Positions 66 to 4,187 of a stretch of DNA of 4,187 bases are shown here, piece by piece. How positions within the stretch are numbered: position 1 is the first letter of the stretch; each line of letters starts with the position of its first letter. The stretch comes from a virus (taxonomy: Duplodnaviria; Heunggongvirae; Uroviricota; Caudoviricetes): IMG/VR virus record IMGVR_UViG_2645727945_000016. One strand, given 5' to 3'. The notes beneath the pieces are model-generated. The model did no database searches. It was not told where the DNA came from and was given only the letters and a program-made list of their open reading frames with translations. The translations under genes were made by a program, and so were the position numbers.

Positions 66-575
<510 letters not shown>

Positions 576-592
576 ATATATATATGTATTTT

Positions 593-666
593 CTCTGTTA
601 AGCGTGAGCTACGTGAAAAATAATTTTTGGTGTGGGTATTAACTTTGCTTTATTCACGTAGAACAC
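593..666. repeat. R1: 74-bp intergenic element, direct-repeat copy of R2, with an internal 9-bp inverted repeat
   Basis: Bases 593..639 (ctctgttaagcgtgagctacgtgaaaaataatttttggtgtgggtat) match 2869..2913 with one substitution and a 2-nt indel. A divergent 13-nt core follows, then ttcacgtagaacac (653..666) matching 2929..2942 at 13 of 14 positions. Internal arms ctacgtgaa (609..617) and ttcacgtag (653..661) are reverse complements. It lies between the tape measure stop (674) and the 149-aa gene. Confidence 0.85.
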
Positions 667-673
667 CGTTAAA

Positions 674-2854
674 TCAATCATCTTCTGGGAATGATGAACT
701 TAATAACGTAGCTTCTGCATATTGGTCGTAGATATTACTGCTAAAGGTCATAAAGCTGGTTTCATCTGGTTTAATGGCAACTTCACCACCAAGTGAAACT
801 TTCACTGGTTCCTGAATACGCTTACTCAAAGCACTAATTTCATCTCTTAGATTTTGGATGTCAGTGCTCGTTAATGATGCATCTTGTTTCATGGTAATCA
901 ATTCTGGATGATTGAATCTTGCAATATTCATTGTGGCATTGTTAAACAATTCACCCATTGAACTAAAAATTCTACTCCATCCTTCGTTAATCACATTCGG
1001 TTTATTAGGGTCACCAGAATACACAGGATTAAAGTCACTACCCACACCTACCCCAGATGGATGCATATTAGCGTTTTTGACTACTTCCTGATTCATAAAA
1101 TCCAGTGCTTTCTTCAATGCATATAAACCAAGAGTGACACCTCTGATTTGTGGAATCATTGAAGCTAATGCTAACGCTGTTTCATAACCGTCATCAGCAT
1201 AACCAATTGCAAGAGCACTACCTACACCACCAGCTACACATTTCAGTTTTTCACCACCTTTACCAGTAGCTACCTGACCAGCCACCTGATTAGCTCTTGT
1301 ACCTAACGTTGTGATTGCTCTTGTCAGGTTCATAACCCCTGTAGTAGCACTGAATAGTGTCTTTGCAGATAACGCTATAGCAAGACCTTTGACGAAGTTG
1401 ATAAATCCATCACCGACTTCATCAAGTAGCTTTCGCTTAGTGTCATCAAGACTGTAATAGAACTTCTTAGTCTGTAAAATCCAGCCTTCAAGGTGATTGT
1501 TAAAGATACGGATGTCATCTACACCAGCTTTAAGCATGTCGATAAGTCCACCGATAGCATCACCAGCGATAGAAGAACTCATACCCATTTCACTAAGCAG
1601 GTTACTCAGGCTGGATAAGAAGCCGTTTAACTCATCCTGTGAACCTGAGAAGATTTTAACCATCGTATCATCCCAGTTGTTTGCTAACTTACCTAAAGCT
1701 GTCTGAGTGCTCTTAGCGACTTCAGCCCAACCACCCGCTTTATCAATCATCAAGCCCATCTGTTTAGCGACTTTAGGGAGAGTATCACTACTTAAAATCT
1801 TCCCGTCTTTCATCGCTTTATCAAGCTCTGTAGCAGTCATACCCAATGCTTCAGCGAATAGCTTAAATGCACCAGCCATACGGTCACCTAACTGCCCACG
1901 TAATTCTTCAGCCTGAATCTTGCCCTTAGAAGCCATTTGCTCAAAAGCCTTCAGAATGCCGTTTAGCTCATCATTACTAAGCCCCATTAAGCGACTCATA
2001 GCCGTTGCATTACCAAATAGCTCCTGTGTCTGTTCCTGTGACATAGAACCCTGAGCACCTGCTGCAAACTTAGCGTAGCTTGATAGCCCTTCAGAGATAT
2101 TAAGACCTGTCTTGTCAGCCAGTCCCCTGATAAATGTTTCAGCTTCAGATGCTTTATCACCAAGTACAAACTTAGCGGCTCTCTGTGCGGAATCTCGTTT
2201 AAGACCTGCATTCATGATGGCCTTGTAAGCGTTAAGAGCACCCATCACAGAGTAAAATGCACCAGATAACTTGATTGCATTGCTTGCAAGATTATTAAAT
2301 GCGTCGCTTGTATTGTTAATGCTGGTGGCCTTTGTCTGTGACCTGAGTTTATTCAACGTTTCACGAAGAGATTGATTTAATTTTGCAAGTTCAGCGTTAA
2401 ACTTTTCACTTCCAATATTGCCAGCTTTACTACTTAATGCGTAAAACTGTGCTTTAAACATTTTAGCCATCAGCGGATTAATATCACCAAGCTTAGACAT
2501 ATTCACACTATGCGCTGCTGTGATTGCTCTGTTGCCGCTAATTCGTGGCTGTCTTGGTTGTTTTGGAGGATTAATAGCGTCATTAACCTGACTTGTGAAA
2601 CGGAAAACTTTAGTATTTCTTGCTCTCTGTTCAATCTTGTCAAAGGTCTTATTAAACTTCCTTTCAAGTTGCCCTAAAGAACTTGTCAGATTGCTGTCAA
2701 GTTGCTTGGTATCGACCTTAAACGCTCTATTCAAATTACGTTCAATTCTTTGTGCTGACTGCAAAGCTGCCTTTTCAACTCTTTGCAAGCCCTTAATAAC
2801 GTTCTCGCTGAAGCCTAGCTCAACGATAAAACTATCAACTTTAAATTGTGCCAT
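674..2854 (-). CDS. Phage tail tape measure protein (726 aa)
   Basis: 2181-nt ORF with AGGTGA (2869..2864) 9 nt upstream of the ATG at 2854 and an in-frame TGA two codons upstream, so this is the first possible start. The translation is long, largely alpha-helical and Ala/Gly/Ser/Leu-rich. The central stretch ELNGILKAFEQMASKGKIQAEELRGQLGDRMAGAFKLFAEALGMTATELDKAMKDGK resembles the conserved tape-measure domain as I recall it, and there are Gly-rich hydrophobic segments near the C-terminus (GGVGSALAIGYADDGYETALALASMIPQIRGVTLGLYAL) typical of this family. Family assignment is from recollection, not a search. Confidence 0.85.
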   Translation of the reverse strand: MAQFKVDSFIVELGFSENVIKGLQRVEKAALQSAQRIERNLNRAFKVDTKQLDSNLTSSLGQLERKFNKTFDKIEQRARNTKVFRFTSQVNDAINPPKQPRQPRISGNRAITAAHSVNMSKLGDINPLMAKMFKAQFYALSSKAGNIGSEKFNAELAKLNQSLRETLNKLRSQTKATSINNTSDAFNNLASNAIKLSGAFYSVMGALNAYKAIMNAGLKRDSAQRAAKFVLGDKASEAETFIRGLADKTGLNISEGLSSYAKFAAGAQGSMSQEQTQELFGNATAMSRLMGLSNDELNGILKAFEQMASKGKIQAEELRGQLGDRMAGAFKLFAEALGMTATELDKAMKDGKILSSDTLPKVAKQMGLMIDKAGGWAEVAKSTQTALGKLANNWDDTMVKIFSGSQDELNGFLSSLSNLLSEMGMSSSIAGDAIGGLIDMLKAGVDDIRIFNNHLEGWILQTKKFYYSLDDTKRKLLDEVGDGFINFVKGLAIALSAKTLFSATTGVMNLTRAITTLGTRANQVAGQVATGKGGEKLKCVAGGVGSALAIGYADDGYETALALASMIPQIRGVTLGLYALKKALDFMNQEVVKNANMHPSGVGVGSDFNPVYSGDPNKPNVINEGWSRIFSSMGELFNNATMNIARFNHPELITMKQDASLTSTDIQNLRDEISALSKRIQEPVKVSLGGEVAIKPDETSFMTFSSNIYDQYAEATLLSSSFPEDD

Positions 2855-2868
2855 TGTTCATATTTCAC

Positions 2869-2942
2869 CTCTGTTAAGCGTGAGCTACGTAAAAAATAAT
2901 TTTTGGTGGGTATATCTGTTCAGAAGATTTCACGTAGCACAC
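2869..2942. repeat. R2: 74-bp intergenic element, direct-repeat copy of R1, immediately upstream of the tape measure RBS
   Basis: See R1. Internal arms gctacgt (2884..2890) and acgtagc (2932..2938) are reverse complements. In minus-strand RNA the stem extends through a U-G wobble (2891/2931) and three A-U pairs. The minus-strand 3' end of the element (CGCTTAACAGAG) runs directly into the GGTGA Shine-Dalgarno of the tape measure gene. Confidence 0.85.
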
Positions 2943-2946
2943 ATAC

Positions 2947-2988
2947 AAAAAAGGGAGAAACTACCGATATCACTCGATAATCTCTCCC
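2947..2988 (-). terminator. Rho-independent terminator on the minus strand between the 67-aa gene and R2
   Basis: Minus-strand RNA reads GGGAGAGAUUAUCGA-GUGAUA-UCGGUAGUUUCUCCC followed by UUUUUU (plus-strand a-run 2947..2952). The stem is 15 bp in the minus transcript, three of them G-U wobbles; on the plus-strand transcript those positions would be A-C mismatches, so the structure is strand-specific. It starts 48 nt after the TAA stop at 3038..3036. Confidence 0.75.
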
Positions 2989-3035
2989 CGTATTATAGAT
3001 TCGATAGAACCTATCTCATATACCCAACCAATTCT

Positions 3036-3239
3036 TTATCTAATCAGATAATAATTACCATCTTCACCGACAATCTGACAATCACTTGGTAATTTATCAA
3101 GACACCATTTAGCGATTCTTCTGATTCTGCTATTTTGCCTAGAGGTGGATGATTTGATTCGTTTTGGTTTGTTGGGTTGTTCTTTCAATCTCTCGCTAAT
3201 TGCTTTAATAAGTTCATAGCGTTCCGTTAAATCAAACAT
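3036..3239 (-). CDS. Hypothetical small basic protein (67 aa)
   Basis: ATG at 3239 preceded by AAGGAGGTGA with a 5-nt spacer. An in-frame TGA lies immediately upstream of the ATG, so it is not a frameshift extension of the 236-aa gene. The central segment is Lys/Arg-rich (KPKRIKSSTSRQNSRIRRIAKW), suggesting nucleic-acid binding. A terminator follows. Function unknown. Confidence 0.65.
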   Translation of the reverse strand: MFDLTERYELIKAISERLKEQPNKPKRIKSSTSRQNSRIRRIAKWCLDKLPSDCQIVGEDGNYYLIR

Positions 3240-3264
3240 TCATCACCTCCTTTTTAATTCATAG

Positions 3265-3975
3265 TCAAAGTGCCTTTGCGTATTTCTGAGAAATCTTCAC
3301 TAACTGCTCAATATCAGCCTGCATAGCAACCTTCTTCTGCGTTTCATATGCAGAAATAAGGTCTTTCATAGCCTGAAGCTCTCTTAAGAGACACAACTTA
3401 ACATTTTCAAGTTGCTTGTTACGTGATGCTAAGATGTTCTGTCTGGCAATTTCACGGAGTTCTTCATCGCTCTTATTGGTCGTGTAAATAAACTGACCAG
3501 CACCTCTTGAAGCTTTAACCATCTTCACAATTCGATGTCCAGCAGGAAGACTACTAATCACGTCTGTGACGTTTTCTGGAAAAGTACCAAAACCATCATT
3601 GTCTTCGTATGTGAAGTAAACATACGGCTTCTGTGACAATTCATCCTGAATCTCAAATTCTGACGGCTCAATAGCTGATTGCATCAGGGTAACTTTGCTG
3701 TAAGCGTCATCAAGTTTAATACGTTGTTCTTTCAGCAGTGGGTAATATTTCTTTTCAAGATTAAGTAGTGCTTCACCCTTGCAGATATCTGGCATTTCTT
3801 GAGGCTCAGGAGACACAAAGATGATTTCCTTTGGTGACATCTTTAGCGATTGCTCAAGCTTAATTCTTTCATCGTGTTCTTTACGCTGAATAGTGATAGC
3901 TGGATGTTCAGTCTGTGGCGACCAGTCACCGAAGCTGTCAACCTTTTTACCGTTAATATATAAATCGTTTGTCAT
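3265..3975 (-). CDS. Hypothetical protein (236 aa) with a predicted coiled-coil C-terminal region; function unknown
   Basis: ATG at 3975 preceded by AGAGGAAA with a 6-7 nt spacer. Stop is TGA at 3267..3265, only 25 nt before the start of the 67-aa gene, so the two are probably co-transcribed. The C-terminal 70 aa or so is helical and heptad-like (EELREIARQNILASRNKQLENVKLCLLRELQAMKDLISAYETQKKVAMQADIEQLVKISQKYAKAL). I do not recognise it as a major tail, tube or chaperone family. Confidence 0.75.
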   Translation of the reverse strand: MTNDLYINGKKVDSFGDWSPQTEHPAITIQRKEHDERIKLEQSLKMSPKEIIFVSPEPQEMPDICKGEALLNLEKKYYPLLKEQRIKLDDAYSKVTLMQSAIEPSEFEIQDELSQKPYVYFTYEDNDGFGTFPENVTDVISSLPAGHRIVKMVKASRGAGQFIYTTNKSDEELREIARQNILASRNKQLENVKLCLLRELQAMKDLISAYETQKKVAMQADIEQLVKISQKYAKAL

Positions 3976-3997
3976 TACTATTTCCTCTAAGTGGTTA

Positions 3998-4075
3998 TTT
4001 CTTAATAGAGCACCTTCGACGACAATACACTTAGAAGATGACTTAACGATTTATTAAAGATGCTCTATTAAGAAA
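3998..4075. promoter_or_regulatory. Perfect 15-bp inverted repeat pair separated by 48 bp, in the 5' region of the 236-aa gene
   Basis: tttcttaatagagca (3998..4012) is the exact reverse complement of tgctctattaagaaa (4061..4075). The proximal arm ends about 10 nt upstream of the RBS of the 236-aa gene. Confidence 0.4.
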
Positions 4076-4104
4076 AGCCCTAAACATAATCTGTGAAGGG
4101 CTTT
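4067..4104 (-). terminator. Weak candidate terminator on the minus strand, for a gene lying upstream beyond the window end
   Basis: aaagccct (4074..4081) and agggcttt (4097..4104) are reverse complements with a 15-nt loop. The minus-strand RNA continues AGGGCUUUUCUUAAU. The stem has only about 4 G-C pairs. All three minus-strand frames have stops at 4150..4175, consistent with an upstream gene ending inside the window. Confidence 0.3.
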
Positions 4105-4187
4105 GAAGGTTTGCTTATAACGTTAACGAAGTTTCAGGAAAAACTTTCTTTAAAAGCTCTGTTTAAAAACTCTTAAAGAAAGCCCTA

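Follow-up and report, generated by a model that had tools for sequence, protein, structure and literature searches.

In T4-type phages, composite promoter-terminator elements known as promoter-early stem-loop (PeSL) cassettes (PMC2839356, PMC4122927) combine a promoter, a stem-loop and a Shine-Dalgarno sequence in about 100 nt (PMC2839356). Here we describe an element of 74 nt, designated R, which occurs twice in a stretch of 4,187 nucleotides from the IMG/VR record IMGVR_UViG_2645727945_000016 (the whole stretch is hereafter called the window), once on either side of a tape measure protein (TMP) gene. By its layout R seems analogous to the PeSL cassettes. Both are short (about 75–100 nt), conserved intergenic composites of a stem-loop, an A/T-rich promoter region (putative in R) and the Shine-Dalgarno sequence of the downstream gene. 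Both stand in direct orientation on either side of a variable gene, adjoin or act as terminators, and have copies that recombine with one another.

Other systems offer partial parallels. T4 middle promoters have no -35 element and use a MotA box at -30 together with TAnnnT. The late promoters of P2 and P4, a helper-satellite pair, carry an upstream dyad element and are activated by Ogr/Delta. With both of these R shares a -10-like TAnnnT, a different conserved box instead of a -35, and dyad symmetry. The SAS/ESAS of Cluster K mycobacteriophages are conserved asymmetric sequences located just upstream of translation starts, and their function is itself unresolved. The comparison below suggests that R is probably a portable cis-regulatory cassette acting on the gene downstream of it, if its possible modes of action at the DNA and at the RNA level are taken together. 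What is said of its function is deduced from sequence.

Two copies of one palindromic element

The genes of the window all lie on the minus strand. The repeat finder detected a 47-nt direct repeat at 593–639 and 2869–2915 (91% ungapped identity) and a 14-nt block at 653–666 and 2929–2942 that matches at 13 of 14 positions, with a common spacing of 2276. In a gapped alignment on the gene (minus) strand, the copies are distinguished by one C/T substitution, a 2-nt AC indel and a divergent core of about 15 nt beside the conserved 5′ block, as a first-pass annotation of the window had described. The 38-mer CCAAAAATTATTTTTYACGTAGCTCACGCTTAACAGAG occurs exactly twice in the window, both times on the minus strand, where 0.00 occurrences were expected (200 shuffles), and the pattern CTACGTGAA-N35-TTYACGTAG matches only R1 and R2 there. 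The repeat finder and the shuffle test thus confirm that R1 (593–666) and R2 (2869–2942) are two direct copies of one 74-nt element flanking TMP, none of which is expected by chance.

A feature absent from the first-pass annotation is that R1 and R2 are each an imperfect palindrome, detected as inverted repeats by the repeat finder. The arms in each copy are GTG(T)GCTACGTGAA and TTYACGTAGC(T)CAC with about 33 nt between them; the inverted part measures 9–15 nt (CTACGTGAA / TTYACGTAG), and the arm centres are 44 bp apart. R2 (2869..2942, minus strand; nhmmer profile score 76.5 bits) is located between the terminator T and the TMP ribosome-binding site. On the minus strand it comprises the left arm GTGTGCTACGTGAAA with the core CTACGTGAA (2928..2942, alignment columns 1–15, inverted repeat with 2880–2894); the conserved box ATACCCAC (2906..2913), 7 nt upstream of TAnnnT (7–9 nt in other copies); the -10-like TAnnnT hexamer TATTTT (2893..2898, columns 45–50); the right arm TTTTACGTAGCTCAC (2880..2894, columns 49–63); and the conserved tail GCTTAACAGAG (2869..2879). 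The tail continues into the Shine-Dalgarno sequence GAGGTG of TMP (2865–2870), so that the last two bases of R2 fall within it. In R1 (593..666, minus strand) the left arm is at 652–666, the box at 630–639, TAnnnT at 617–622, the right arm at 604–618 and the tail at 593–603. R1 begins 8 nt past the TMP stop codon and ends 78 nt ahead of the ATG of the Dit-like gene at 515, with the hairpin hp2 (530–579) separating it from the gene start. The proposal that both copies lie immediately 5′ of a gene therefore fits R2 and does not fit R1.

Conservation and modular exchange

A total of 55 distinct R sequences were recovered, and an alignment of 31 representative variants, including the third copy R3 described below, was used for the analysis of columns and arm pairs. 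The sequences compared share ancestry and recombine, and the counts do not represent independent events. Four groups of columns are invariant: C6, T7, A8 and C9 in the left arm; T29, A30 and C35 in and around the box; T45, A46, T50 and T51 in the hexamer region, with columns 47–49 varying; and A53, C54, G55 and A57 in the right arm. The hexamer in the alignment takes the forms TATTTT, TAGAAT, TAGTTT, TAGATT, TAATTT and TAACTT. An extra form, CAGAAT (L042, from the upstream listing), keeps the A and the final T. The box is present in all loop types, with the variants ATACCYRC, ATATCCAC and ATACCAAC. The GCTTAA of the tail is at least 90% conserved, and the tail resembles CCTTAAACTAGGAG, the ribosome-binding context of Felixounavirus early-gene cassettes.

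In each of the three unrelated loop types the arms enclose a spacer of 33 nt. Its 5′ half exists in three unrelated types of equal length, which are freely combined with several types of the -10 region and of the right arm. Loop types A and C occur at both sites, and the same type occupies both sites in only 2 of 34 islands. These combinations clearly point to R copies exchanging parts by recombination. Derivatives exist as well. One (L035) carries a deletion between CAC repeats, and several islands, as well as R3, have a self-complementary insertion of 26–27 nt exactly at the stem/loop boundary of the left arm.

The columns of R are the most conserved of the region, with major-allele frequencies of 0.90–0.96 versus 0.69–0.85 in TMP. 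Between islands R is 90–100% identical, while the N- and C-termini of TMP drop to 50% and 35% amino acid identity, respectively. R is accordingly an independently conserved non-coding element, as first suggested, and not a fragment of a larger duplication that includes the intervening TMP gene (35–50% amino acid identity).

Arms conserved as sequence

Directly upstream of R2 is T (2943..2989, minus strand), an intrinsic-terminator hairpin of 16 pairs and a T-run, ending in TTTTTTGTAT directly 5′ of R2. A gene-strand terminator scan of the window reported T alone (2952–2989). T shows compensatory changes at two pairs (15 cells) across 16 variants and, by this pattern, is a real sense-strand RNA hairpin. 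It served as an internal control for pair counting, showing that the approach can detect compensatory changes, unlike what is seen in the arms of R.

The sense strand of R is predicted to form a stem of 11–15 bp with an open 33-nt loop (z = -2.1 and -2.8), whereas the antisense strand (z = -0.5 and -0.9) folds no better than shuffles. Among the 31 variants, 85.5% of the arm cells are paired versus 85.3% in shuffles, and the covariation score is 0.076 versus 0.080; the departures are mostly unpaired cells. Changes on both sides of an arm pair were found at 2 pairs (7 cells), no better than chance. Two pairs are lost, with no compensating change, in the common right-arm variant TACGTACAACAC. At column 52, the T/C polymorphism most often seen in the arms retains G-U or G-C pairing (10 one-sided changes). 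Judged by these counts, the arms are conserved as sequence and not as pairing partners. No Rfam match at E <= 1 was found in the R regions, and a known structured RNA family was rejected on this ground together with the shuffle-like pair counts. An intrinsic terminator was also rejected for R, whose loop spans 33 nt and whose right arm is not followed by a U-tract.

Occurrence of R in a chromosomal island

By BLAST, R was found in 446 (R2 query) or 463 (R1 query) of 5,426 complete Escherichia coli genomes, at a median of 1–2 and a maximum of 5 places per genome, all chromosomal. Every R locus inspected is the same island with a serine integrase. The window is part of this 10–12 kb E. coli chromosomal island and not of a phage genome, for which it had been taken. 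Neither R nor window 2856–4187 has a BLAST match among 50,697 phage records, and the phage similarity of the window, to Felixounavirus, is confined to 93–491 and patches of TMP. Pattern-only scans of viral and species-representative genomes yielded 13 real loci, all adjoining Dit-like or TMP genes; a pattern match in L022 was discarded as a chance occurrence inside a coding region.

To sample islands independently of R, 86 loci were fetched via the island-specific 236-residue protein. The R profile gave at most two strong matches per locus, only at the site upstream of TMP and in the TMP/Dit spacer. A recurrence upstream of other genes, which had been considered, was not borne out, as there are only two, sometimes three, sites per island and R is not a genome-wide motif. 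The R1 site is filled in almost all islands checked. The only islands without R1 are those in which the TMP stop and the Dit start adjoin, as they do in phages (L104, L108); L105 and L074 have a diverged copy. About one island in two has R2. Those without it show one of three states: a clean junction TTTTTTGTAT|GAGGTG, a short remnant (ATGAACRCTTAA..GAGGTG), or only the small hairpin module P. Where present, R2 always ends at the ribosome-binding site, and so does R1 in the L020-type islands, which are devoid of hp2. R2 is identical in islands whose neighbouring 236-residue proteins are only about 64% identical (e.g. L075).

A diverged third copy, R3, is located on the other strand, some 450 bp away from the yciI-side end of the island, and points outwards (L046:435-643, minus; L012 ~5909, minus; L009 ~28946, plus). 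It is preceded by a terminator through the TTTTTTGTAT junction, as at R2. Six islands have R3 in a full R-like form, and all others retain only TAACTT-TCACGTAGG-N6-TTAAG. In an excised circle R3 would face the integrase gene and read into it through the att junction. Beside R3 are a perfect palindrome, GTCACAT-C-ATGTGAC, and a promoter-like pair, GTGACC-17-TATATA. In two Shigella flexneri loci (L003, L010), an insertion sequence (IS) with the end TGAACCGCCCCGGGAATCCTGGAGAC, presumably of the IS629/IS1203 type, is inserted in the R1 loop and has removed the left arm and the box.

No spacers separate the chaperone, TMP and Dit-like genes in the Felixounavirus EC6, and no R-like element or motif enrichment was found anywhere in the 86-kb genome. 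CTACGTGAA, ATACCCAC and CACGCTTAA occur in EC6 at chance level or not at all, and the pattern of box plus TAnnnT is not enriched. Since the phage homologues abut and EC6 is without R, R appears to be an island-specific addition; a phage origin, or a late promoter of the Felix-O1 group, was rejected given the EC6 motifs and the missing phage BLAST match. The first-pass suggestion of a phage-specific promoter or 5′ leader therefore survives in part. The position ahead of ribosome-binding sites, for R2 and R3 directly after a terminator, agrees with a promoter or leader; the absence of R from the related Felixounavirus speaks against one specific to the phage.

R as a candidate promoter or operator

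The reading we prefer, to which we give a probability of roughly 40%, is that R acts as a factor-dependent (activator-dependent) promoter/operator that restarts transcription after T. The invariant TAnnnT would be the -10 element, and the conserved ATACCCAC box would take the place of a -35. Transcription would start near the invariant A57 in the right arm, and the tail GCTCACGCTTAACAGAG would provide a short 5′ untranslated region that leads into the Shine-Dalgarno sequence. A putative regulator, from the island or from a helper phage, would bind the arms. With transcription restarting immediately behind T, the tail genes would form a regulated unit apart from the upstream operon. The promoter activity, its orientation, its start site and the regulator are all predictions; the anatomy and positions of R, its conservation pattern, the missing covariation of its arms, the exchange of modules between copies and its absence from the related phage are observed directly.

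Several observations argue for such a cassette. T being a real sense-strand hairpin with compensatory changes, transcription may need to be restarted or modulated beyond it, and R2 and R3 each follow a terminator hairpin via the TTTTTTGTAT junction. The invariance of T45, A46 and T50 around variable columns 47–49 is the pattern of a -10 element, with the invariant A57 sitting 7 nt downstream. A fixed 33-nt spacer in three unrelated loop types is as expected for a fixed protein-DNA geometry, and the lack of covariation in the arms favours an action at the DNA level. That R is an island-specific addition also counts in favour, and precedents exist in the PeSL cassettes and in the early-region cassettes of EC6 compared below.

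A number of points weigh against this reading. Among 51 variants none reaches the 9/12 sigma-70 criterion on either strand; the best match is 8/12 and no -35 is conserved, in agreement with the first-pass remark that no convincing sigma-70 pair could be fitted. Patterns of the sigma-E, sigma-54, sigma-28, T4-late and CRP types were also sought by eye, and none in R is convincing. TA is self-complementary and A5-T-T-A-T5 is palindromic, so that the opposite strand also reads TTAAGC-17-TAATTT. Only R3 (TAACTT) favours the sense strand, and the orientation of the -10 rests mainly on R3 and on the position relative to the genes. As 6 of the 13 columns 39–51 are invariant, the hand-calculated chance that the three key columns are among them is about 0.07, which is no more than suggestive. 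About half of the islands have an intact TMP but no R2, indicating that R2 is not required for TMP expression. R1 is inside an operon without an upstream terminator. The tolerated hairpin insertion of 26–27 nt at the left arm fits a hairpin better than the fixed spacing of an operator, and the better folding of the sense strand and the G-U/G-C pairing kept at column 52 point the same way.

Alternative explanations

The main rival is an RNA-level role, which we judge somewhat unlikely. Transcribed within the operon, R would fold just 5′ of the ribosome-binding site into the hairpin of 11–15 bp with a 33-nt A/U-rich loop, and might serve as an RNase III/E processing site, as a 5′/3′ stabiliser between the TMP and Dit-like cistrons, or as a protein-binding site. 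A candidate ligand is the arginine-rich 67-residue product encoded next to T, as a small basic protein controlling translation or antitermination. Such a hairpin would agree with a fold predicted on the sense strand only, with the pairing at column 52, with R1 lying within the operon directly after a stop codon, and with the position of the 26–27-nt insertion, since an RNA stem would accommodate one exactly where it meets its loop. The neighbours T and hp2 behave as sense-strand RNA hairpins, and the TMP site can do without R, which would suit a leader of modulatory function. However, the 31 distinct variants show zero covariation, their departures are unpaired cells, and variants of the outer stem disrupt pairs. 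Although predicted to be unstructured, the 33-nt loop has invariant motifs and a fixed length, both needless for an RNA loop; nor is there an Rfam match, or a U-tract that would make R a terminator. An explanation free of any regulatory role seems quite improbable to us. R would then be a linker, an unstable palindrome kept similar by gene conversion and offering homology for recombination between islands or sites. The many combinations of left-loop, -10 and right-arm types (with the 2 of 34 islands alike at both sites), the identical R2 copies beside a flanking protein of about 64% identity, and the deletion and insertion derivatives (L035, the remnants and the 26–27-nt insertion) are what a linker would leave, and the breakpoint density is above the mean, about 1.4-fold in the R2 zone and 2.3-fold in the R1 zone. 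But breakpoint peaks in coding sequence are equally strong (window ~3752, 1492, 869), the pairs compared not being independent, and the switch of TMP type in L006 falls within the gene and not at R. In a neutral linker, an invariant TAnnnT, a constant spacing and a constant placement with respect to ribosome-binding sites would not persist.

These data also bear on the idea that the TMP gene is exchanged or deleted as a cassette bounded by R. In the 73 loci where both were located, the starts of TMP and the Dit-like gene are 2060–2355 nt apart, with one at 3542 owing to IS2; none is TMP-less, no island has lost TMP by R1 × R2 recombination, and breakpoints are as frequent within TMP as at R. 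Cassette exchange is thus weakly supported by the sequences, and a deletable cassette was abandoned. The recombination boundary of the first-pass annotation corresponds to the linker reading above. Copies of R do recombine with each other; R is not an exclusive boundary, and its breakpoint enrichment is modest. Very improbable, in our estimate, is that R is itself mobile or a site for recombination, whether a miniature inverted-repeat transposable element (MITE) or a recombinase/HUH site such as an attC-like site, an IS200/605-type end hairpin or a pseudo-att. The arms of R1, imperfectly palindromic over 23 nt and extending to TTAA on either side, would suit such an element, as would the occurrence of TMP sites both with R and without it, the empty ones cleanly joined as TTTTTTGTAT|GAGGTG. 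The attC core consensus is RYYYAAC, and the tail GCTTAAC fits it as a sequence. On the other side, a comparison of filled and empty TMP sites reveals no target-site duplication at R2. No copies were found outside the island, the 13 pattern-only loci all lying beside TMP or Dit-like genes and the E. coli copies being chromosomal with at most five per genome, and no transposase, IntI or Y1/HUH domain was detected in the island proteins scanned (Pfam, PHROGs, NCBIfam, PADLOC). A MITE or IS-derived element was accordingly rejected: inverted arms are present, but target-site duplications and dispersed copies are not. So was a recombinase site, as neither IntI nor a tyrosine recombinase is among the island proteins scanned and the att core of the island, AATGACCCTTGA, is unrelated to R. 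The small resolvase of the island belongs to the variable cargo, and many islands that lack it have R all the same.

The island and a possible satellite

The island is inserted at the tonB start (in the tonB-yciI spacer) or inside yecE, and its att core AATGACCCTTGA overlaps the tonB start codon. Examples mapped in complete genomes are L009:18000-29500 and L012:5355-16860. Its gene order is a large serine integrase; the Dit-like gene, R1, TMP, R2 and the terminator; then genes for proteins of 67, 236 and 107 residues, an HNH gene and further orphans. TMP and the Dit-like gene are diverged counterparts of Felix-O1-like tail genes. The small HNH gene is annotated in RefSeq as an HNH endonuclease. 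ORF-free DNA extends up to 3.3 kb and contains iteron-like repeats (CTAACCGAATCAACTATG). The variable cargo includes a resolvase, a Dam-type methylase or an AP2-domain protein. Apart from integrase, resolvase, TMP and the Dit-like protein, the island proteins match no Pfam, PHROG, NCBIfam or PADLOC family; a 92-residue protein has one weak, sub-threshold DndE/PDC-S26 match. The island is carried by about 8% of complete E. coli genomes, including enterotoxigenic E. coli E24377A and avian pathogenic E. coli O18, and the family spans E. coli and Shigella. Strain O55:H7 TB182A bears the island as well. A literature search returned no description of it or of a Felix-O1 satellite, and the island appears to be undescribed.

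The island looks like a phage satellite, or a defence element against Felix-O1-like phages. One might go further and take it for an unrecognised family of satellites, or satellite-like defence elements, exploiting Felix-O1-like virulent myoviruses, with the R cassettes as one regulon; we think this unlikely. The R copies before TMP and before the Dit-like gene, together with R3 before the integrase across the joined ends of the circle, would then form the regulon. A regulator from the helper phage or the island, binding the CTACGTGAA arms, would switch it on. Only in the course of an infection would the island then produce tape measure and baseplate-hub proteins of its own, to hijack or poison the tail assembly of the helper.

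If R is a switchable promoter/operator, it would be a control point for Felix-O1-related tail genes in a widespread, unstudied E. coli island. Two questions would then be open to direct test by simple reporter fusions and infections: whether the island is a satellite or an anti-phage element against a phage group used in typing and therapy, and which signal it senses. The pattern CTACGTGAA-N35-TTYACGTAG-N7-TTAA is a compact sequence marker for finding islands. If R is only a leader hairpin or a recombination linker, it would be a modest example of modular intergenic shuffling outside T4-type phages.

Other genes and elements of the window

The TMP gene (674..2854, minus strand; 726 residues) matches PF20155 and phrog_4036. 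Its product is 34% identical to the EC6 TMP over 529 residues, with the N-terminal 45 residues nearly identical, and its DNA matches Felixounavirus phages in patches only, at about 86–89% identity. An out-of-frame mini-ORF of 6 codons, ATGAACAATGGCACAATTTAA (2841–2861), begins 4 nt past GAGGTG and extends over the start codon of TMP at 2854; in other islands ATGAATG occupies the position of the mini-ORF and TMP starts. Downstream of R1 is the truncated Dit-like baseplate gene (93..515, minus strand; ORF 66–536, real start 515). Window 93–491 is 96% identical in DNA to Felixounavirus phages, and the full 262-residue form of the protein in L009 matches PF21821 and phrog_3721. Window 1 to about 105 matches the istB-side end of the IS21-family ISEc12 at 95–97%. 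Because the homology to the intact gene begins at 93 while the IS match runs to about 105, ISEc12 truncates the gene here. The ISEc12-end sequence is present in 1,845 of 5,426 E. coli genomes, on chromosomes and plasmids.

The hairpin hp2 (530..579, minus strand) lies between R1 and the Dit-like ribosome-binding site, with a major-allele frequency of 0.96; a 150-nt fold including it has z = -4.2. In islands lacking hp2 (L020-type), R1 directly adjoins the ribosome-binding site. The left arm of hp2, TATCAAAGGCTTG (567–579), fits the IHF consensus WATCAANNNNTTR, which may be coincidence.

Just upstream of T-R2-TMP is the ORF for the arginine-rich 67-residue product (3036–3239, minus strand), followed by the ORF for the island-specific 236-residue protein (3265–3975, minus strand). 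Neither protein has a match in Pfam, PHROGs, NCBIfam, PADLOC or PDB sequences. By comparison both are unrelated to the tape-measure chaperones of EC6, and the RefSeq name "transposase" for the 236-residue protein finds no support in Pfam, PHROG, NCBIfam, PADLOC or PDB. This protein has more than 3,000 homologues, and the named ones among the 120 matches listed are from Escherichia, Shigella and Salmonella. Just upstream of its gene is a 19-nt inverted repeat, TTTCTTAATAGAGCACCTT / AAGATGCTCTATTAAGAAA (3998–4075, 95% complementary), also kept in L009 (22 nt, 91%), which may be an operator or the terminator of the preceding unit.

Upstream of T is P (2992..3019, minus strand), a promoter-like ATGAGA-16-TATAAT module (10/12 matches) with a small hairpin. 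P is an optional module, and some other islands carry a second copy of it between T and R. The pre-TMP spacer (2943–3019, with equivalents in L004, L005 and L030) is composed of optional modules: P (ATGAGATAGGTTCTATCGAATCTATAAT), T, a second P and R. The hairpin of P (GGATAG..CTATCC) and the 26–27-nt insertion of some R copies (GGATAA..TTATCC) share GGATA/TATCC arms. The sequence TTGGTTGGGTATAT (3018–3031) is kept just past the 67-residue gene in nearly all islands, including those without R2. It is complementary at 12 of 14 positions to ATATACCCACCAAA in the R2 loop (2902–2915), and the pair flanks terminator T. This complementarity could reflect long-range RNA pairing or a second, inverted ATACCCAC box.

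Comparison with known systems

R departs from the PeSL cassettes in several respects. PeSL promoters have a strong canonical sigma-70 -35/-10 pair with a spacing of 16–18 nt, whereas R reaches at most 8/12, with no -35 and only the -10-like TAnnnT. The stems of PeSL cassettes are short GGGG/CCCC hairpins, and those of R are A/T-mixed arms with a 33-nt spacer. PeSL cassettes number dozens of copies in hyperplastic regions of lytic phages, and R two or three per chromosomal island. Two of the defining parts, the stem-loop and the terminal Shine-Dalgarno sequence, can be recognised in R: arms of 11–15 bp bracket TAnnnT, with a separate terminator T directly upstream of R2, and at the 3′ end R2 runs into GAGGTG and the L020-type R1 abuts its ribosome-binding site, the R1 of the window being 78 nt from the start. 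As for the gene-swapping role of PeSL cassettes, R copies do exchange parts around the variable TMP, but no island is TMP-less and breakpoints are equally frequent inside TMP; no R-bounded deletion or mini-circle footprint was found.

The SAS/ESAS resemble R in occurring at several genes per genome and in sometimes having an imperfect inverted repeat with a variable spacer beside them; in sequence, host and copy number they are unrelated to it. The box of R differs in sequence and spacing from those of the T4 middle and P2/P4 late promoters. A MotA-box-like CTTTGCTTTA is seen only in loop type B of R, and on the wrong strand. In P4 a satellite promoter is switched on by an activator of the helper or the satellite; for R, such an activator is only putative.

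The nearest likeness in lineage is in EC6 itself. Its early region (L019:37900-42231, EC6 82–86 kb; L018:500-620) contains about ten PeSL-like cassettes of promoter, stem-loop and ribosome-binding site. They consist of a sigma-70-like promoter, a stem-loop GGGGAGG..CCTTCCCC or GGGGCTTA..TAAGCCCC, and then CCTTAAACTAGGAGATTC and ATG; in one cassette type an inverted repeat brackets the -10. Beyond the CTTAA..GAGG tail they have no sequence homology to R. Unlike R, they have a recognisable -35/-10 (TTTACA-17-TAAAGT, TTGACA-17-TAAATT), and they stand before early genes and not before the phage's tightly packed tail genes. The EC6 cassettes nevertheless come from the phage lineage closest to the island tail genes, and they share with R a promoter region (putative in R), an inverted repeat and a CTTAA(A)C..GGAG ribosome-binding context like that of the R tail GCTTAACAGAGG.

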